The position numbers were made by a program, and so were the translations under genes. Positions 3-55,274 of a DNA stretch of 64,000 nt are shown one piece after another; position 1 is the stretch's first letter; the number at the start of each line of letters is the position of its first letter. Origin of the DNA: a virus. Its lineage: Duplodnaviria; Caudoviricetes. The stretch lies in IMG/VR virus record IMGVR_UViG_3300042307_000844; one strand, 5' to 3'. The notes beneath the pieces were generated by a model. That model searched no databases. It was not told the DNA's origin and was given only the letters and a program-made list of their open reading frames with translations.

Positions 3-2105
3 AGGTCTTTCCAGAGCAAGGAACAACCTACGGACATTGATGCGATCAAATGCGCTTGGTTTGCGGCTCATGGTCTTTTGACCAAAGACAACCACACCTT
101 GGGCGGGGGAGAACATAACAGGGTTGATGTTGATCTTGTAGAACTCATCACGCTGTTTCTGATTCGGATTGATTGCGATGTCCAGAGCGTTTGTCACCAG
201 ACCACGGGTGAATCCAGCAGGAGCAGACCATGGGAATTCCGCAGCATCGCTACGTGCCATGATAGCAGCTTGGTATCCAGAGAATGGAAGCCAAACCTTT
301 TCACCTGTGAAATCATCATAGGCTTGCACCCAGTTTCCATAAGTTGCAGCATAGGAAGTGTTTTCCAATTCGAATTGGTGTCTCATAGCCCAATAAACAT
401 CTGTTTGGAAGTTCTTGTTTCTATCAGAAAGAATCTTGGTGTTTCTTCCAGTCACAAGAATGTGACGGATAGGATCAGCAATGAATACGCAGTCGCCACG
501 ACCACCAGTATTGGAGGGGAGGTTACAGAAGTTCTCAAATTGGTTGAAGATCGCGCTGTAATTGGCACGAAGATCGGTTGCTACCGTATTGTAGAAAATA
601 TCTTGGGATGTTCTCAGGGAGTCCACCTTAGCCTTCAACGCACTGTTATAAAGGGTATCGTCATAATATGCGGTTCCCGCAGCAGATGTCATCGTGAAGA
701 TCGTTCCCAGACCACCTTCGACAACCACATCAATGTCATAGATTTCATCATTCTTGATGCTTTCCAGAGCGCGGTTGATCTTGGTTGGAACATTGCCGAT
801 GATTTTTTGGGTGATCTTGACAGGATTGTAAACACCCAGAGGATACAGGGCATTTGCGACTCCAACGCTTTCAGAAAGACCCGAAAGTGCATATGTGTTA
901 GCTACTGTTAAATTAGAACTAAGAGCGGAGGCGGTAGAGGTAGTGGTTGTAATACCTAATGCAGCGGAGATGCTTGTATATTGAGTGGCAAGCAAGCTCT
1001 CAGTTACCACACGGATTTTCTTGGTGGGATTACCCGAAGAATCCAGCGAGGATTCGGTGAACTTGTTGGAGATGTATGGATTGACCATGATTTCCACATT
1101 GCGGGAATTGGTATCCTGAGTTTCAAGGAAGAATGGAACGGATGGTCCACCATTTGGATTGAGTTGAGTTCTGAAAGTATCAATGGAACCCACGATACGG
1201 TCATCAAGCACATAATCCAGCTTGAATGCTTCCGTTGCATATACACTCTTACGGAGCTTGAAGACACCAACGTTAAGAAGGTCATCGTCTTCCCTATCGG
1301 CAATGTTGTAGTCGGTAAGGTTCTCCATGACTTGGGAAATACTACCAGTGGCACCTCCATCGGTAGCGGAGAGATTGAATTGGAGCGTTCCGTTTGGAAT
1401 CTGCGTGAAATCCGAAATCACACCAGCAGTAAGGCTTGTGGTATATGCGCGGGTGATTGCATCAAAATTGGATGCTGGATTGAGATTTACGTTATCTGCG
1501 ATACCGACATAATAACCTTCAAATTGGCTATTGATCGTGGTTTGGGCTTTATCAAGCACAATGATACCAGCACCGCCCATGGCAGAAAGGGTATTTGCCT
1601 TTACAGAGGAAAAAGAGGAAAGGGGAGATGCCGTTGCAGACCAATCAAAGAGGGTTCCTTCCATGGCTTGGGCAAATTCCGTTTCCGATAGGGTAATCTG
1701 ATAGGGTTTTCCGAGGAAATAGGTTCCAGCGGAGAGATCGAGGTTTCTCGTTGTGGTAACTCCGGTGGGGGTTGCGGCAACAACGGGATAAACAAGGGCA
1801 GAATGTTGGCTTCCAAATCCATCACCAGAACCGGAACCATAAGGAAGACGGAAAGTGTAGATGTTTGCGGGAGAATTCAGGAGTTCCCTCACAGTGTAAT
1901 AGAAATAACGTTCTGCGCTATTGGTTGGGGTTCCATAGATTGCTTCCAGTTCGTCTCTGGAAGTGATTTTGATAACCTCATCAGAATATCCTTGAGGTGT
2001 ATAACCTGCTACGAAAATATTAGTCCCTACATTCGCCTGTGCGACGAGACTTAAATCTCTCTCAAATATCTCCACCCCAGCCGAATTTATTGTGCGTGTT
2101 GCCAT
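3..2105 (-). CDS. gp18: Tail sheath protein (T4 gp18-like), partial, runs off the left edge
   Basis: Missing from the ORF track because it has no stop in the window. Manual translation from ATG at 2105 gives MATRTINSAGVEIFERDLS...; near the edge it reads FPWSAPAGFTRG...INPVMFSPAQGVVVFGQKTMSRKPSAFDRINVRRLFLALE, typical of the gp18 C-terminus. Confidence 0.95.
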   Translation of the reverse strand, partial: MATRTINSAGVEIFERDLSLVAQANVGTNIFVAGYTPQGYSDEVIKITSRDELEAIYGTPTNSAERYFYYTVRELLNSPANIYTFRLPYGSGSGDGFGSQHSALVYPVVAATPTGVTTTRNLDLSAGTYFLGKPYQITLSETEFAQAMEGTLFDWSATASPLSSFSSVKANTLSAMGGAGIIVLDKAQTTINSQFEGYYVGIADNVNLNPASNFDAITRAYTTSLTAGVISDFTQIPNGTLQFNLSATDGGATGSISQVMENLTDYNIADREDDDLLNVGVFKLRKSVYATEAFKLDYVLDDRIVGSIDTFRTQLNPNGGPSVPFFLETQDTNSRNVEIMVNPYISNKFTESSLDSSGNPTKKIRVVTESLLATQYTSISAALGITTTTSTASALSSNLTVANTYALSGLSESVGVANALYPLGVYNPVKITQKIIGNVPTKINRALESIKNDEIYDIDVVVEGGLGTIFTMTSAAGTAYYDDTLYNSALKAKVDSLRTSQDIFYNTVATDLRANYSAIFNQFENFCNLPSNTGGRGDCVFIADPIRHILVTGRNTKILSDRNKNFQTDVYWAMRHQFELENTSYAATYGNWVQAYDDFTGEKVWLPFSGYQAAIMARSDAAEFPWSAPAGFTRGLVTNALDIAINPNQKQRDEFYKININPVMFSPAQGVVVFGQKTMSRKPSAFDRINVRRLFLALERP

Positions 2106-2110
2106 ATTAC

Positions 2111-2117
2111 TATTTAG
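2111..2117 (-). promoter_or_regulatory. T4-like late promoter box for gp18
   Basis: CTAAATA-GTAAT-ATG. Confidence 0.75.
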
Positions 2118-2155
2118 CAATTTATGGCTGAAAATTTGTTATTCTATAAAACACA

Positions 2156-2326
2156 CTATTTTTCAATCATCTCTGCCACAGAATTTCCATCAACATCCTC
2201 GACAATCTTGAAAGACGGTAATTTATTATCTTCTGCATATTTTTCCAATTTGGCTATCAATTCTGCACCCAATGGTTCTTCTCCTTGAACCATTGTTGGT
2301 AATTTTCCTAAAAATATATTTTCCAT
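2156..2326 (-). CDS. Small hypothetical protein (56 aa, MENIFLGKLPTMVQGEEPLG...)
   Basis: Manual translation, below the ORF-track cutoff; fills the gap between co-oriented genes. Confidence 0.55.
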   Translation of the reverse strand: MENIFLGKLPTMVQGEEPLGAELIAKLEKYAEDNKLPSFKIVEDVDGNSVAEMIEK

Positions 2327-2356
2327 GGAATTACTTTACCTTGAAAAATTGAAATG

Positions 2357-2965
2357 TCAACTCAGAGTCTGATTATATCTATCACATCCCAGTAAATTGA
2401 TGTGCATTTGTGAGAAAACAAAAGTAAATCCGCTTTCAATCTCCATTTCACCCGTCTCATTCTGAGAGAATGCTAATTCATCGATTGATGTTACAAAAGC
2501 TTTCGTATATTTAAATTGAATTACTTTATTATCATATTCATCCAATCCATACATCGTAATATCCGTCTGATAATCCGAAAAATTACCATCCACTATAATA
2601 CCCTTTTCATTGAATTGACCCGTCTTTTGGTCATGTTGTAGATTCAGCCATTGGTAAATTACCCAATAATTATTATATCCGCTATCCACTTTGAATTTGA
2701 CATTTACGGGAGGATAAGGGTCTTTGCTATGGCTTGACACATAAAGCGTATCTCCCGCATATCGGGTGGCAATCGCTTTAATGGTCAATCCCGGAACCAT
2801 CGTCCCATAGATGCTGAATTGCACACTATCGGGAATGATGGTATTGTCATTCCTTGTGTAATTGGATTGGATTCTCTTTAAAATTGGGGGCAAATCGAAA
2901 ACGAGAAGGAATTTATCCTTCCTGCTGCGATTTAAGAACGATTGTCGGACCTCTGTATTACTCAC
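2357..2965 (-). CDS. Tail completion / tail-tube-fold protein (gp3-like)
   Basis: QFKYTKAFVTSIDELAF and FTFVFS motifs of the gp3/gp19 fold; lies between terminase and sheath; GTG start 6 nt after TTAAATA. Confidence 0.65.
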   Translation of the reverse strand: MSNTEVRQSFLNRSRKDKFLLVFDLPPILKRIQSNYTRNDNTIIPDSVQFSIYGTMVPGLTIKAIATRYAGDTLYVSSHSKDPYPPVNVKFKVDSGYNNYWVIYQWLNLQHDQKTGQFNEKGIIVDGNFSDYQTDITMYGLDEYDNKVIQFKYTKAFVTSIDELAFSQNETGEMEIESGFTFVFSQMHINLLGCDRYNQTLS

Positions 2966-3464
2966 TAAACATATTTAATGGGAAACGCTCCTTTAACAGA
3001 TCATAGAATGGTTTATAAAAATAAACATTATCGGGAGGATATTCAACTGCCCACATTTCCACCATTTCATCCACATCATAACCATTATATCCCAACTTCG
3101 CATCCTGCGCGACATAGAATTTCCACTTTGGATTATTCTCCGCAAATCGGTAAAACCTTTGGATATTTTGTTTTAATTGTTTTTTTGGTATGGATCGTTT
3201 GGCTCCCGCTTTCGTGACGGATGGGATTGCATATGATTTACCCTCTCGCCCTTCTTGGATACCTTCAGCACAACCCTTCACATTCCATCGACCTTTCCAC
3301 CCATTCTCTTTTAAATGGTAATCGTATTTTCTCCAAACGTTACCAATTTCTCCAAAAGATGCATATCCCGCTGATCCGGCCCCGTGCCACCCCAATAAAT
3401 TCGAAGTGAACACAAACACTTCATCATCTTTTAGATCGGTGATGTAATTTTCATAACATTTCAC
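2958..3464 (-). CDS. A1S_2505-like phage non-structural protein (macrodomain-like)
   Basis: EVFVFTSNLLGWHGAGSAG...GKSYAIPS...FYRFAENNPKWKFYV matches the FVFGSN-x-G-x-HG-x-G...SYAIPT pattern as I recall it. Confidence 0.55.
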   Translation of the reverse strand: MKCYENYITDLKDDEVFVFTSNLLGWHGAGSAGYASFGEIGNVWRKYDYHLKENGWKGRWNVKGCAEGIQEGREGKSYAIPSVTKAGAKRSIPKKQLKQNIQRFYRFAENNPKWKFYVAQDAKLGYNGYDVDEMVEMWAVEYPPDNVYFYKPFYDLLKERFPLNMFSE

Positions 3465-3494: not shown

Positions 3495-5357
3495 TCAACC
3501 GAAATATTTCTCCATTGCTGCCCATTGATCGGAAGAGATATTCCTTTCGGGATTGGAGAACACCGAATGATCTGGTAAAGCCCAACCCGCAGCTTCCAAT
3601 TCCGCCATGTCGCTGACAGCAGCACCCCCAAATCCTCCGAAGAGCATGGGAGAGATATTGGAGTGTTCAATCTTGTCAACCTCTTCATTCGTGTATATGG
3701 ATGTGGATGATCTGTATTGGTGAAGTCCCTGATCGATGGGTTTTATGCGTAAAGGTTTATCACAATCATCCAGTTCCTCAACTTCAAAATACAATTCAGT
3801 TATATCCTTGTAAAGAGCCATCAATGCCCACACAAATGCCATCACACGGTCATCATGTTCCCCGCTTTTGGCTTTCCAAGAGCCATTTGGGTATCGCACA
3901 AACATCTTGAACTCTTTCAGGGTGTCGATGTTGCGGAATACCACGGATTGCGCTTCATTAACAAAATATCTCTGGTTGAGAACCGCTTTGTATTTGGTAT
4001 TGATGTGGGAAATCATACCATTCTGCTTGTTCTTATGCGCTTCCTTGGCTCCCCAAGACACAAGATTCTGATACATATGTGTATTTGCCAAGGTATCACA
4101 TACTCCGGTTCCTTGGTTGTTGCGCTCAATCAATAGCAAAGGATTTCCCCAATGCCCACAAATTTCAACAACTTCATTGGTAAATTCCGATGGGCCGATC
4201 ATATTATTATGATATTCCGCAACTTGTATGATTTCATTGGGGTTTGTGATGTCAAGGACTTCTAAAACCGATGCATCCAACCCAACACCTTCGGAAACGT
4301 CTCCCCCAATGACATAAATTTTCTCAGGATCGTATTCTTCCCATATTTTATATTTACCGTCTTTTAGGATGTGGAGCGGTGATTTACAATCGATTTTAAG
4401 TTTATCGAACAATGCTTCGTCCAACGATGATTCACTATTGTCAACAAAATGACAATTATATTCCTGTTCAAATAATTCATATGATCCTAAACGAGCAACT
4501 TCTTTCAATTTCCATGCTTCGTCTCTACCCGGAACCTCCTCCCAAGTGATCGTTTCAGCGTGAAATTCGTTCCACCCATCAGTTCCTTTTTTCAACGCAT
4601 CTGCAAACATTTTATAAAAAACATTATCTTTTCCTCTGGGAGTTGAAGTGATTAATATTTTAGATGTTTTTGCTCTGGAGATGGTTGGTAGGACAGAAGA
4701 CATGAAATCAACCACCAAACTATCGGGATCAACCCACGCCAATTCGTCAAGTAAGAGGCATTGAATAGTGCTTCCTCTCGCAGTTGAACTACTTGTCGTT
4801 GCAATCCCGATGGTTGAACCATTTGAAAATTCGGTGCTTTCCTGACCCCATGTTTTAACTCCGGGTTTCAACCAGTTGGGCAATTCCTCATATGCTAATT
4901 TAACACGCTTGAAAATCATTTTCGCGGTGTCTTCTTTGTTGGCAACGATTATAGTGTTTCTATAATCCTTAAAACAAGTCTCATGTAGGGCTAATATGGT
5001 TAGACATGTGGTATTATGACTTAAAATACCGTTAGTGAAAATTCGATGATCTTCGCTATCCACAGTCGCATCATACATATGTTCGCTACGATCAGTCTTA
5101 ACAATTGATAAAACCGCTTCAAGACCGTTTTCCGTCCAAATATTATCACCAATATTCAAGTTCTCACAAAAAACTTCCTCATAATCAGAATTTTTAAAAA
5201 TTATGTGTTCATCAGCACATTCTAATTGAAAATTTTCGGTTGTTATGATCCACACATCATATACAACTGTCTTATGAAGATGTGTCAAGTCGTGCCACCC
5301 AGAATCAGTCCAGATTTCATAATCAGTTAAATCTATGGTTTCTATTATCTTCCCCAT
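3495..5357 (-). CDS. gp17: Terminase large subunit, C-terminal half, fused to a 115-aa C-intein
   Basis: Intein end ...FTNGILSHN followed by TTCLTILA; ARGSTIQCLLLDELAW (coupling motif and Walker B); ITSTPRG; nuclease motifs IGGDVSEGVGLD and HDDRVMA. Confidence 0.95.
   Translation of the reverse strand: MGKIIETIDLTDYEIWTDSGWHDLTHLHKTVVYDVWIITTENFQLECADEHIIFKNSDYEEVFCENLNIGDNIWTENGLEAVLSIVKTDRSEHMYDATVDSEDHRIFTNGILSHNTTCLTILALHETCFKDYRNTIIVANKEDTAKMIFKRVKLAYEELPNWLKPGVKTWGQESTEFSNGSTIGIATTSSSTARGSTIQCLLLDELAWVDPDSLVVDFMSSVLPTISRAKTSKILITSTPRGKDNVFYKMFADALKKGTDGWNEFHAETITWEEVPGRDEAWKLKEVARLGSYELFEQEYNCHFVDNSESSLDEALFDKLKIDCKSPLHILKDGKYKIWEEYDPEKIYVIGGDVSEGVGLDASVLEVLDITNPNEIIQVAEYHNNMIGPSEFTNEVVEICGHWGNPLLLIERNNQGTGVCDTLANTHMYQNLVSWGAKEAHKNKQNGMISHINTKYKAVLNQRYFVNEAQSVVFRNIDTLKEFKMFVRYPNGSWKAKSGEHDDRVMAFVWALMALYKDITELYFEVEELDDCDKPLRIKPIDQGLHQYRSSTSIYTNEEVDKIEHSNISPMLFGGFGGAAVSDMAELEAAGWALPDHSVFSNPERNISSDQWAAMEKYFG
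5013..5357 (-). other. C-terminal fragment of a split intein (IntC, 115 aa)
   Basis: Block B LECADEH, block F MYDATV, block G SHN followed by Thr+1. Confidence 0.9.
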
Positions 5358-9743: not shown

Positions 9744-9750
9744 TATTTAG
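9744..9750 (-). promoter_or_regulatory. Late promoter box
   Basis: CTAAATA-ATGAT-ATG. Confidence 0.7.
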
Positions 9751-17246: not shown

Positions 17247-17269
17247 TATTTAGTCATTTACTCTAAATA
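17247..17269. promoter_or_regulatory. Divergent pair of late promoter boxes
   Basis: Minus CTAAATA-ATCCT-ATG (17247-17253); plus CTAAATA-TTAAC-ATG (17263-17269). Confidence 0.75.
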
Positions 17270-46871: not shown

Positions 46872-47167
46872 CGTCTGTTCTTCTCTTGATTCTCTCTGAT
46901 CTTCCTAGCTCTTTCCAATGCCCTCTCAGCAGCCCGTTCGTATTGTTCAGCAGTGGGGAATCCCGCGATCATACCAATACCCACATCTTCATATTCTGTT
47001 AATTCGCGGATGATTTTTCCATCAGACCTAACCATTCTCAGATGTGGTCGTGGTAAATCGTGTTTTCTCCCATCCATATAACCGTCACAATACGATTTGA
47101 TTTGATATTTGATGAAAGAGTTCCATTTGTTTAGACATGGACTTTGGATGCTATAGGTGTATTTCAT
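46868..47167 (-). CDS. Hypothetical protein
   Basis: 99-aa coupled ORF. Confidence 0.6.
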   Translation of the reverse strand: MKYTYSIQSPCLNKWNSFIKYQIKSYCDGYMDGRKHDLPRPHLRMVRSDGKIIRELTEYEDVGIGMIAGFPTAEQYERAAERALERARKIRENQEKNRR

Positions 47168-47598
47168 TGTTCCAAGAGTTCTGGATTTTCAAATATATTA
47201 CCACACACCACCCAATATGTCCAGTCGCATAAATTTACAAAATTATCATGCAGTGGAGATGGCGATCCATGTAAATTATTGACATTGTTATGGACGAAAC
47301 AACATTCTTTATCATTCCAACCAACCACAATTTTACAAAAAGACCCATTACCCACCCTCTCAAGGATATCCCCATCATAAATCTCTTTGTTGTTTTTGTC
47401 TATCAATCCAGTGAATTGTTGAAGAACGTAATCATCGGAACAATCAACATCTCCACAATGTTTAAAATCTCCACGCAACTTGCCGTTCAATTGTAAATAG
47501 AATTTTTCAGCATATTCTCCATTCATTATCGGAGTCGAAGATGGGTAAAACATCTCTTTATATAGAATATTCCAAATCCTGAATTTTATATCTCTCAT
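47164..47598 (-). CDS. YopX family protein
   Basis: MRDIKFRIW...QQFTGLIDKNNKEIYDGDIL...GNIFENPELL. Confidence 0.9.
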   Translation of the reverse strand: MRDIKFRIWNILYKEMFYPSSTPIMNGEYAEKFYLQLNGKLRGDFKHCGDVDCSDDYVLQQFTGLIDKNNKEIYDGDILERVGNGSFCKIVVGWNDKECCFVHNNVNNLHGSPSPLHDNFVNLCDWTYWVVCGNIFENPELLEQ

Positions 47599-47882
47599 TT
47601 CTTTTTAACTTTTTTCTGCTCGGAACGAACATACTTGGTGACAAATTTACTCTTCGAAATTGTGCTGTCTTGATCCAAAAACACCTTAACAAGCTCCTGA
47701 TCAGAGTCAAGGGACAATATCGTTTTCAGGATCGTTTTCAGCTTCTCCTCTTGGAGAGTTGTCACGAAAACGTTCTGGATGGATAATTTCTTACCTTTGA
47801 TGTTATTTACGAAAGTGCAATAACAGAGAAATAAGTGGTTCTGTTCATTTTCTATTATATTTGAGGAGGGGTCGTATATCAT
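47595..47882 (-). CDS. Hypothetical protein
   Basis: 95 aa; HLFLCYCTFVNNI. Confidence 0.6.
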   Translation of the reverse strand: MIYDPSSNIIENEQNHLFLCYCTFVNNIKGKKLSIQNVFVTTLQEEKLKTILKTILSLDSDQELVKVFLDQDSTISKSKFVTKYVRSEQKKVKKK

Positions 47883-47884
47883 AA

Positions 47885-47932
47885 TTAAATTGCGTGGGGT
47901 TGTTCGATAGATGAATCAAATAGGCGTTTCAT
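47885..47932 (-). CDS. Candidate 15-aa mini-ORF MKRLFDSSIEQPHAI
   Basis: ATG 6 nt after TTGACT-N16-TATAGT; stop 2 nt before the next ATG. Confidence 0.35.
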   Translation of the reverse strand: MKRLFDSSIEQPHAI

Positions 47933-47938
47933 ATATAT

Positions 47939-47966
47939 ACTATAATCTATTTTTCACCGAAGTCAA
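47939..47966 (-). promoter_or_regulatory. Sigma70-like promoter for the 47.9 to 44 kb leftward run
   Basis: TTGACT-N16-TATAGT-N6-ATG. Confidence 0.55.
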
Positions 47967-48004
47967 ATTAAATTACGATATTTCATAAAATATTAAGAAA
48001 AAGA

Positions 48005-48011
48005 CTAAATA
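48005..48011 (+). promoter_or_regulatory. Late promoter box in front of tnpB
   Basis: CTAAATA-ATAAC-ATA, with ATA in frame with tnpB. Confidence 0.6.
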
Positions 48012-48016
48012 ATAAC

Positions 48017-49234
48017 ATAGAAGAGGAAATTACATACCAAGCTTTCAAATTCAGAATCTATCCGTTAGATTCTCAGAAGGAATTACTAGCAAAGCATTTT
48101 GGATGCTCTCGATTTATTTATAATTATTTTCTAAAAGAGAAACAAGATCATTATTTGAATAATGGCAAAACTTTAAATTATAATTATTGTTGTTCTGGTG
48201 TTAAAAAATTAAAAGACTCTGATGAATATTCATGGCTCAAAAAAGTCAATTCACAAACACTACAACAATCTTTAAAAAATCTTGAGACTGCGTATGGCAA
48301 TTTTTTCCGTAAGAAATCTAAATTTCCAAAATTTAAAAAGAAATCAAACCAACAATCATTTGGGGTTTGCCAAGGAGTTAAAATAAAAAATAATAATAAA
48401 TTACAAATTTATAAATTTAAAGAAGGAATACCGATTCATCTCCATCGTAAATTGGAAGGAAAAATCAAATCAGCAACAATTTCCAAAACGCCCACCGATA
48501 AATATTTTGCTTCCATCCTTTGTGAAGTCCCCAAGAAATCTAAACCAAAGACTGGTAAGACTTTGGGTATTGACTTGGGTATTACAGATTTCATAGTAAC
48601 AAGCGATGGGGAGAAAGTAAAAAATCCCAAATTCAATCATTCTTTAAAACAAAAGCTTTCAAAAGCTCAAAAACATTTAAGTAGGAAAACGAAAGGTAGC
48701 AATAGATACAAAAGACAAAGAAAAAAAGTAGCGAGAATCCACGAGAAGATAACCAATTCTCGGAAGGATTTCCAACACAAATTAAGCACTCGTTTGATTA
48801 ACGAGTATGATATGATTTCTTTAGAATCTCTGGCTGTTAAGAACATGATTAAGAATGTAAATCTTTCTTATAGTATTCAAGATAGCTCTTGGAGTTCTTT
48901 TATATCAATGTTGGAATATAAAGCCAAGTGGTATGGTAAGGAGATTAGGAAGATTGATAGATGGTATCCTAGTTCCAAGACCTGCCATAAGTGTGATTAT
49001 ATTATCGATAAGCTACCTTTGTCAGTGAGGCGTTGGATATGTCCCAAGTGTGGTGAGAACCATGACAGGGACATCAACGCCGCAAAAAACATTCATCGTC
49101 AGGGATTGGCGATTACAGATGTGGAGATGGAAGCTCTGGTTGCCAGCAATGGCGACGAAACTACTGTCTGTGAAGCGTCTAAAAAGAAGTCTTATAGACT
49201 AAGACTGAAGCCGCTGGGTCTTGCCCATCGGTAG
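48017..49234 (+). CDS. tnpB: TnpB RNA-guided endonuclease (IS200/IS605 family), 405 aa if started at ATA 48017
   Basis: In-frame N-terminus upstream of the track start: YQAFKFRIYP...KHFGCSRFIYN; RuvC-I GIDLG, RuvC-II SLESL, Zn finger CHKC...CPKCG, RuvC-III DRDINAAKNI. Confidence 0.92.
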   Translation: MEEEITYQAFKFRIYPLDSQKELLAKHFGCSRFIYNYFLKEKQDHYLNNGKTLNYNYCCSGVKKLKDSDEYSWLKKVNSQTLQQSLKNLETAYGNFFRKKSKFPKFKKKSNQQSFGVCQGVKIKNNNKLQIYKFKEGIPIHLHRKLEGKIKSATISKTPTDKYFASILCEVPKKSKPKTGKTLGIDLGITDFIVTSDGEKVKNPKFNHSLKQKLSKAQKHLSRKTKGSNRYKRQRKKVARIHEKITNSRKDFQHKLSTRLINEYDMISLESLAVKNMIKNVNLSYSIQDSSWSSFISMLEYKAKWYGKEIRKIDRWYPSSKTCHKCDYIIDKLPLSVRRWICPKCGENHDRDINAAKNIHRQGLAITDVEMEALVASNGDETTVCEASKKKSYRLRLKPLGLAHR

Positions 49235-49259
49235 TTCACCTTTGAGATGGTTCACGAAG
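49090..49259 (+). ncRNA. Putative TnpB omegaRNA (reRNA) scaffold plus guide
   Basis: Right-end hairpin GAAGCCGCTGGGTCTTGCCCATCGGTAGTTCAC ending at 49239, typical of IS605/IS1341 ends; the downstream flank would be the guide; 5' boundary approximate. Confidence 0.55.
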
Positions 49260-49320
49260 GAACAATAACAAATGAATAAGTGATCGCTCTCGCTTTCTAT
49301 AATTGCAGATGAAGGATTGC

Positions 49321-50010
49321 TCATAATTCTATTGTTTCTATGTGAATATTGTTTTCAAAAAGCGGTTGGAAATGACTCCAATTTTTATGAAATTGATTTA
49401 GACCAGAATTGTCAAATAAACCCACTTGATATCTAATACCTTTCAATGGGAATGTGTCCCTATTGATATTTTGGAACTCAATTGGAGGAGATTTACCATC
49501 AAAACGAATATCGATATTTTCATCATATTGTCTCCGCACCATCTCACATAATTGTCGGTTGGAAGAAAAATGGATAACATTTTTACCGTTGAAAGCTTCC
49601 CAAGCAGCCAGCGTCAACAAGAAAATGGATACACCTTTTCGTCTGGTAAAGGTGAGATAATTATACCCTTCAATATAACCACGAAACATCGTTTTTTGAT
49701 CATAATTGATCGGATATCCATTAAAATTCTCAAAGAACTTATAGAATTCCCCCGTGGGATTAGGATTATTAGGCTTTGGTGTATAGAACTCCCCAAGATA
49801 TACCGATCCTTCATACGGATTATCATTATTCCATGCCAGAAACAGCATATGAGATATCCTTCGCACGTTATCCCAATCCTTTGGTTGTTTTTCCGCTGGA
49901 TAGAATTTCTCAGAGATTTTAGACACTTCGGAGACGAATCGCAATTCCTCCCCCATTACCTTATTGGGGTTGTGTTTCTCGTTGATGTGTTGTATTTCGT
50001 ATAATTTCAT
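49321..50010 (-). CDS. Hypothetical protein with degenerate terminase-like ATPase domain
   Basis: YDQK...TRRKGVS...LAAWEAF...LKG...GLFDN parallel to Q motif / RQxGKT / LRG / hhhDE. Confidence 0.45.
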   Translation of the reverse strand: MKLYEIQHINEKHNPNKVMGEELRFVSEVSKISEKFYPAEKQPKDWDNVRRISHMLFLAWNNDNPYEGSVYLGEFYTPKPNNPNPTGEFYKFFENFNGYPINYDQKTMFRGYIEGYNYLTFTRRKGVSIFLLTLAAWEAFNGKNVIHFSSNRQLCEMVRRQYDENIDIRFDGKSPPIEFQNINRDTFPLKGIRYQVGLFDNSGLNQFHKNWSHFQPLFENNIHIETIEL

Positions 50011-55260: not shown

Positions 55261-55274
55261 TATTTAGTTAAATA
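55261..55274. promoter_or_regulatory. Back-to-back late promoter boxes (kinase / head-internal-like gene)
   Basis: Minus CTAAATA-ATATC-ATG; plus TTAAATA-TCAAT-ATG. Confidence 0.75.

Follow-up and report, generated by a model that had tools for sequence, protein, structure and literature searches.

The window analyzed here, a 64,000-nucleotide (nt) stretch of the IMG/VR record IMGVR_UViG_3300042307_000844 from an uncultured T4-like lake phage (177.6 kb, 39% G+C, 87% complete), carries a tnpB gene without a transposase, on the plus strand amid a block of minus-strand early genes. Together with its omegaRNA, this gene forms a cassette that is probably a late-expressed, translationally attenuated, RNA-guided element, free-standing and spreading by intronless homing among T4-like lake phages. 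More tentatively, and with slightly less than even confidence, we propose that AUA is a selected working start codon on a leaderless late mRNA that keeps the nuclease dose low, and that the cassette is a self-contained RNA-guided gene drive among lytic phages, which moves by intronless homing, with short immune patches left behind wherever a genome escapes it. Such a drive would comprise the promoter, tnpB, the omegaRNA, a displaced target that serves as guide, and a recoded substitute gene end.

The tnpB/ATA locus is no assembly error. Window positions 47400-49700 were reproduced without difference by contigs of three lake metagenome runs (2020, 2023, and 2025), and positions 47713-49700 by a fourth (2018); the source sample may be among these runs. 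A megablast comparison of the locus with GenBank phages gave no match, and the TnpB relatives discussed below (L-numbers) were collected by scans of viral and metagenome contigs.

The evidence for homing comes from relatives that lack the nuclease. In four TnpB-free contigs (L149-L152), the 5' part of a small gene that we call gene X contains TTAC and, directly after it, a 19/19 match to the guide. These contigs agree with the right flank of the window's cassette at about 85 of 90 positions; the beginning of that flank, D, therefore represents what was originally the 5' part of gene X. D persists as a 41-amino-acid (aa) open reading frame (ORF; 49199-49324, minus strand), joined by an ATGA overlap to the stop of the neighboring 229-aa gene. 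A syntenic TnpB-free relative (L064/L153) has a 160-aa gene (88% identical), a homologue of the 229-aa gene, a 94-aa gene X, and a 99-aa gene in the same arrangement, and its gene X contains TTAC and then a sequence that differs from the guide at one position. IS608 targets TTAC, and SfaTnpB uses it as its target-adjacent motif (TAM) (PMC8612924, PMC12781874). Neither Pfam nor PHROGs gave a function for gene X or its neighbors. A low-depth contig from the 2018 lake run holds a third allele of gene X (window 47695-47798) that departs from both ends present in the window right after TTACCT, and the target site is therefore polymorphic within one lake.

On the other side of the cassette, the phage has a complete copy of the target gene, X1, which is presumably the working one. 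Left of the junction and up to TTAC, the window equals L064 at 54 of 56 aligned bases, and right of TTAC, over the roughly 100 nt that we call D', identity falls to about 70%. Over about 100 nt, D and D' share 71% of their bases, and their local alignment scores 48, compared with at most 28 after shuffling. The same break is visible in the protein: X1 and the gene X product of L064 are 82% identical, with nine differences among the first 29 residues and complete agreement over residues 30-68. TTAC and the first six target bases, CTTTGA, are retained in D', which mismatches the guide from position 7 onward (6 of the first 20 positions). The guide template in the phage is preceded by TCAC rather than TTAC, and the record contains no other site with three or fewer mismatches to the 16-nt guide next to TTAC, so that the phage appears to be immune to its own nuclease.

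A cassette-free contig, L155, may record the repair of a cut. Flanking the target, 106 nt on the left and 54 nt on the right are the same as in the naive L149 type, and the difference between the two consists of eight substitutions in target positions 7-23, all eight of them the bases of D'. ISDra2 TnpB cuts 15-21 bp from the TAM, and a short conversion tract from D' during repair of a cut would give exactly the L155 allele. The in silico comparison found what intronless homing calls for, a target in the adjacent gene of nuclease-free relatives and an own allele protected by substitutions, and the mosaic break at the TAM and the L155 patch are indirect signs of biased inheritance in mixed infection. 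An earlier reading of the window from its letters and ORFs alone (hereafter the sequence-only reading) had suggested action against tnpB-free co-infecting phages. Comparison of the guide with related phages and empty alleles supports that suggestion through the targets in L149-L152, as do the recoded target of the phage itself and the patch-only allele of L155.

The same targeting evidence, TTAC plus a guide match in TnpB-free contigs, would also be expected of a weapon against competitors, in which the main effect of the nuclease is to destroy or exclude co-infecting relatives with a naive gene X, the cassette being copied only as a side effect. Conservation of the right-hand homology arm is low, the 229-aa gene being only 41-48% identical to its homologues in L064-L067 against 88% for the 160-aa gene next to it, which would make gene conversion inefficient. 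Both outcomes are known for protein homing endonucleases (2026 review, PMC13565253). However, the mosaic break at the TAM and the L155 patch indicate repair by recombination rather than loss of the cut genome, and a substitute end such as D' is what a homing cassette needs to be harmless once copied. We consider the weapon reading unlikely, though worth keeping in view. Very improbable, in our judgment, is that gene X had two old tandem paralogues, represented by D and D', and that an ordinary insertion hit one of them, with the guide match to relatives a side effect of usual IS605 biology that plays no part in competition between phages. The similarity of D to D' and the many small paralogous genes in phage early regions fit this account, but in relatives without TnpB only one gene X occupies this place, the rest of the second paralogue is missing, and identity breaks exactly at TTAC. 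Comparable imperfect direct repeats of the target also flank the cassette at two other, unrelated insertion sites (in L008 at the 3' end of a gene and in L010 in the start region of a gene).

The product of tnpB has the features of a TnpB nuclease. Pfam recognizes HTH_OrfB_IS605, OrfB_IS605, and Cas12f1-like_TNB (E-values 8e-16, 2e-33, and 2.5e-26, all above curated cut-offs). The nearest solved structure is that of ISDra2 TnpB (8h1j, 8bf8; E-value 3e-88), to which the alignment begins at residue 6-7, and the N-terminus counted from ATA is therefore of normal length. The RuvC D, E, and D residues and the four cysteines of a CxxC...CxxC zinc finger are invariant in the alignment of TnpB relatives, and the D-E-D residues align with the D191, E278, and D361 region of ISDra2 TnpB. 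The intact triad rules out a TldR, that is, a nuclease-dead TnpB-derived regulator. No match to the Y1 transposase (PF01797) or to serine recombinase (PF00239) was found in the whole 177.6-kb record. The conserved left end spans only about 15-35 nt, consisting of the promoter and a short TTAT(C/T)ACC motif, and has no subterminal hairpin. With neither TnpA nor a left-end subterminal hairpin, the cassette is not an autonomous IS200/IS605 or IS607 transposon.

The right end carries a covarying RNA. The last 140-170 nt of nine related elements (listed below) align and share a fold of 31 pairs, of which 15 show compensatory changes, and a covariance model built from this alignment scored the window copy at 144.6 bits. 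Additional protein-free omegaRNA copies in the record were considered and rejected, since the model finds only the one copy. Rfam at gathering thresholds gave no match on the window, and the omegaRNA is therefore not a catalogued family. All of the elements terminate in GGTAGTTCAC or a near variant, and their sequences are unrelated directly after TTCAC. This places the element end at 49239 and the guide start at 49240, with the second GTTCAC at 49250 inside the guide, which would be the first 16-20 nt of the right flank. These results bear on several claims of the sequence-only reading. The intact RuvC triad and zinc finger are confirmed by the Pfam matches and the ISDra2 alignment, the absence of tnpA from the window extends to the whole record, and the right-end hairpin and GGTAGTTCAC belong to the aligned omegaRNA. 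Its placement of the guide from 49240 also holds, and the ambiguity that it saw in the boundary is resolved by flank divergence and the target match.

Guides of other lineages were compared with viral contigs. The L008 guide was found in its own record only, and the L072 guide had no match. For the L010 guide, an exact 20-nt match next to CAAC, with no flank homology, occurs in two unrelated viral contigs (L165:11138-11157 and L166:3215-3234), which could be chance or a second target. In L072 the guide (2756-2780) looks like the T-arm of a tRNA (GAAGG-TGCGAAT-CCTTC), although ARAGORN predicts no tRNA gene in that locus. Some 60-110 nt upstream of their cassettes, L009 (1400-1480) and L072 (1405-1443) have a hairpin like that of the right end, with ...TCGAAC after it, and the window has an apparent 3' half of such a hairpin (GCGTGGGGTTGTTCGAT) at 47896-47912, directly after the start of X1. 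This upstream hairpin may be what is left of an earlier element or guide unit, and it is not detected by the covariance model. L069 contains a second full-length omegaRNA (3614-3770, minus strand; 131 bits) at the contig end, on the opposite strand.

The second part of the proposal concerns how the nuclease is expressed. The tnpB frame is open from 47972, after TAA at 47969-47971, and its first ATG, GTG, or TTG is TTG at 48155, a start at which would cost the protein some 46 residues that have aligned counterparts at the N-terminus of ISDra2 TnpB. CTAAATA stands at 48005-48011, and an ATA follows exactly 5 nt further on. The T4 late -10 box, TATAAATA, sits 5 nt upstream of the transcript start. 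CTAAATA occurs 18 times in the window (9.9 expected); 12 of these copies have an ATG 5-6 nt downstream, and 10 of the 12 open ORFs of 119-854 aa (the other two are an ORF at 2117 that extends past the start of the window and an ORF at 9750 for which no length is given). Across the whole record, among ORFs of at least 60 aa, TAAATA-N5-ATG precedes 44, TAAATA-N5-GTG three (824, 741, and 101 aa), and TAAATA-N6-ATG five, and tnpB is the sole ORF with ATA after TAAATA-N5. Examples of the TAAATA-N5 start layout in the window lie at 17263, 20806, 24702, 37957, and 55706 on the plus strand and at 55267, 17253, 8978, 7011, and 6617 on the minus strand, and a baseplate wedge subunit gene is among the genes that have it. 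This layout predicts leaderless late mRNAs, and the late genes of the phage appear to be leaderless.

The ATA is shared by all close relatives of the gene. Besides an identical copy (L005), these are eight further lineages (L006a, L006b, L008, L009, L010, L011, L069, and L072) that are 69-81% identical to the window TnpB; with the window they make up the nine lineages compared throughout. All nine have the promoter box, five nucleotides, and ATA, in upstream flanks that are unrelated to one another; the box is of the TAAATA type, altered to CCAACTA in L009. None of the nine has an ATG, GTG, or TTG in its first 16 codons, and all keep tnpB open over 403-414 codons. L008 has an in-frame TAA directly before ATA, and its neighboring gene stops 30 nt before ATA, where the conserved left stretch begins. 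The nine form a single clade (support 99/99), whose nearest outgroups start with conventional codons: L077 has CTAAATA-N7-ATG and L073 has TTAAATA-N5-GTG. Pairwise ratios of nonsynonymous to synonymous substitution rates (dN/dS) within the clade are 0.08-0.24 at dS values from 0.75 to more than 2 (saturation), and tnpB has therefore long been kept as a protein gene with ATA in place. The weight for an old ATA start lies jointly in the lack of a canonical start in nine lineages, the L008 stop, and purifying selection. The L006 contig (45.6 kb) holds a second TnpB cassette (409 aa, 1796-3045, minus strand), divergently oriented about 1 kb from the first, with its own omegaRNA and a different guide; this cassette also reads AGACTAAATAATAAC-ATA.

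Judged from this comparison of sequences, ATA is not a recent defect, and the most economical reading is that it is a weak start kept by selection, from which translation would begin. That tnpB is instead a decaying, untranslated relic of IS200/IS605 whose start mutated from ATG to ATA, as the missing canonical start, transposase, and left-end hairpin might suggest, is contradicted by the comparative data: nine lineages share ATA at saturated synonymous divergence with the frame open and under purifying selection, the catalytic residues are kept, and the omegaRNA covaries. We regard a relic as extremely improbable. Three other routes to the protein were rejected. A phage initiator-like tRNA reading AUA is not among the tRNAs of the record, which are only for Lys, Asn, Glu, Thr, Tyr, and Pro. 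A-to-I editing of ATA was dropped because the site lacks the UACG loop context generally known for TadA substrates. An upstream ORF or a frameshift into tnpB conflicts with the L008 stop directly before ATA, and the upstream frame in the window has no start.

The sequence-only reading had noted that the frame extends upstream without an in-frame ATG back to the stop, and that ATA lies exactly 5 nt after CTAAATA in the layout of the late genes of the phage; the open frame from 47972 and the 44 ORFs behind TAAATA-N5-ATG agree with both statements. At 48017, the assemblies of the four lake runs have ATA, as do the other clade members. Its suggestion that the nuclease belongs to the late program is supported by the promoter-N5-start layout shared with genes including the baseplate wedge gene and kept in nine lineages. 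It had offered two explanations of ATA, of which the inactivating mutation of ATG is rejected in view of the monophyletic clade and purifying selection, leaving the attenuated start, at which translation is predicted to begin. As to the possibility that CTAAATA is simply the left end of the element in unrelated hosts, the box is indeed part of the left end of the cassette, but two carrier records that were tested are phages with the same late layout (CTAAATA-N5-ATG at 13 and 6 sites, versus 0 in a control). The left-end CTAAATA therefore does not refute the late-program reading.

Taken together, we propose the following course of events. Late transcription from CTAAATA would start at or beside the A of ATA and yield a leaderless mRNA, whose AUA start would deliberately hold nuclease yield low late in infection. 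TnpB would trim the 3' end of its own mRNA into the omegaRNA. When a TnpB-free relative infects the same cell, the complex would cut its gene X at TTAC plus target, 15-21 bp from the TAM, while recombination-dependent replication is under way. With the cassette-bearing genome as template, recombination-dependent repair would then copy D' together with the cassette, which is homing, or else the short D' patch alone, which would give an immune, empty allele. Neither site in the phage's own genome would be cut.

Several points weigh against this proposal. To our knowledge, AUA initiation on bacterial leaderless mRNA should be very poor, and we know of no natural precedent. The same single codon is found in all nine lineages at 43 of 188 invariant degenerate residues, so that codon invariance alone is a weak argument for selection on ATA. 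In Caulobacter, near-cognate starts on leaderless mRNA are very weak, a change from AUG to AUA cutting expression drastically, with a non-cognate GGG control lowest (10.1101/2020.05.06.081141), which also fits an attenuated start. The weakness of near-cognate starts and of the argument from codon invariance favors a different account, in which ATA is kept because it belongs to the start region of the promoter and the protein is made otherwise, from a non-canonical codon slightly further downstream or from rare read-through transcripts that have a different start. Opposed to it are the variation of codon 5 (ATT, CTT, and ACT among members), which leaves no conserved start there, the absence of any ATG, GTG, or TTG from the first 16 codons, the loss of aligned N-terminal residues that a start at TTG 48155 would entail in the window, and the L008 stop directly upstream of ATA; we find this account distinctly unlikely. 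Further points of the same kind concern the other parts of the homing proposal. Late expression is judged from the motif and one baseplate gene, and RNA-guided DNA cleavage by the phage TnpB is a prediction. The TAM derives from one target family and from left-copy alignments, and in the left copy of L008 the motif reads TTGA. Instead of a repair footprint, the patch in L155 could be a natural polymorphism of greater age that gave rise to D'; on either origin, its sequence is no longer matched by the guide. Finally, homing as proposed here does not explain how D' was first joined to the cassette.

The closest well-studied relative is the ISDra2 TnpB/omegaRNA system (IS200/IS605, OMEGA; 8h1j, 8bf8, 8exa). 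The two share the domain set, the D-E-D triad, and the zinc finger, as well as an omegaRNA that overlaps the gene at its 3' end and stops at the right end of the element, a guide taken from the flank, and a target located beside a short 5' motif. Unlike ISDra2, the phage cassette has neither TnpA nor a left-end hairpin, its left end is a phage late promoter, its start is ATA, and its predicted TAM is TTAC instead of TTGAT. It is also flanked by an imperfect repeat of about 100 nt, the substitute gene end, whereas peel-and-paste transposition yields none. A known function of TnpB is to bring back its own transposon after this has excised.

In its way of working, the cassette resembles the free-standing homing endonucleases of T-even phages (SegF, SegB, and MobE). 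Homing endonucleases of T4 are expressed late and at low levels, and intronless homing in T-even phages was reportedly described by Belle et al. in 2002. Shared with these enzymes are a nuclease gene between conserved genes, a target in the adjacent gene of nuclease-free relatives, an own allele protected by substitutions, an expected co-conversion of flanking markers, and late, low expression, which for the cassette is a prediction (traits of the T4 enzymes partly from the review PMC13565253). In contrast, the cassette would recognize its target through a guide RNA copied from the displaced target rather than through a protein of the GIY-YIG, HNH, LAGLIDADG, or similar type, would separate self from non-self by guide mismatches, and would be attenuated by a weak start codon where the T-even genes have a hairpin over the ribosome site. 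It therefore seems to work like the protein homing endonucleases without being a member of them. A further parallel comes from plasmid populations, through which TnpB drives IS605 by non-restorative homing (PMC11870625, discussed in PMC13565253): TnpB cuts the empty orthologous site in a co-resident replicon, and the element is copied without a need for TnpA. The plasmid case is experimental and involves a complete insertion sequence, whereas the phage case is natural and lacks a transposase, and its cassette sits in lytic phages, brings its own promoter, and is accompanied by an immune substitute allele.

According to the 2026 review, copying between co-infecting phages is still theoretical (PMC13565253), and in the literature searched we found no description of RNA-guided intronless homing in lytic phages. 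The locus offers a concrete natural case whose parts can be read from the DNA: the target in empty relatives, the TAM, the immune substitute allele, and a patch allele that looks like a repair footprint. A conserved AUA start on a bacterial-type leaderless mRNA may be the first of its kind, and if true would be a simple low-dose control of a dangerous nuclease. Coordinates are collected in Table 1.

Table 1. Features of the TnpB/omegaRNA cassette and its surroundings, in window coordinates.
Feature	Position	Strand	Basis or remark
Gene X1 (95 aa), the phage's complete copy of the target gene	47595-47882	-	ORF and comparison with L064
TTAC, TAM-like motif at the left junction	47793-47796	+	Directly precedes the guide match in L149-L152
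D', recoded 5' part of gene X and start region	47797-47895		Alignments, shuffle test
Unique spacer from D' to the conserved left end	47896-48001		No match elsewhere in genome or loci
Conserved left end, AGA-CTAAATA-ATAAC	48002-48016	+	T4-type late promoter box and 5-nt spacer
ATA at the start position	48017-48019	+	Putative weak initiation codon of a leaderless late mRNA
tnpB ORF	48017-49234	+	405 codons, stop TAG 49232-49234; Pfam, ISDra2 alignment, dN/dS
omegaRNA scaffold	49098-49239	+	Overlaps the 3' end of tnpB, terminates in GGTAGTTCAC
Guide template CTTTGAGATGGTTCACGAAG	49240-49259	+	Flank divergence and target match
D, displaced original 5' part of gene X	49240-49335		About 85/90 bases as in L149-L152
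229-aa gene, right-hand homology arm	49321-50010	-	Upstream of the original gene X

The spacer contains a sigma-70-like site, TTGACT-16-TATAGT (47966-47939, minus strand), that faces X1 and may give the restored gene its own promoter; the evidence is weak, as such sites are common in AT-rich DNA (15 versus 7.6 expected). The 229-aa gene occupies a hypervariable slot right beside the cassette. On the far side of X1, a YopX-family gene (47164-47598, minus strand) lies between X1 and the 99-aa gene, a place at which L064 has none.

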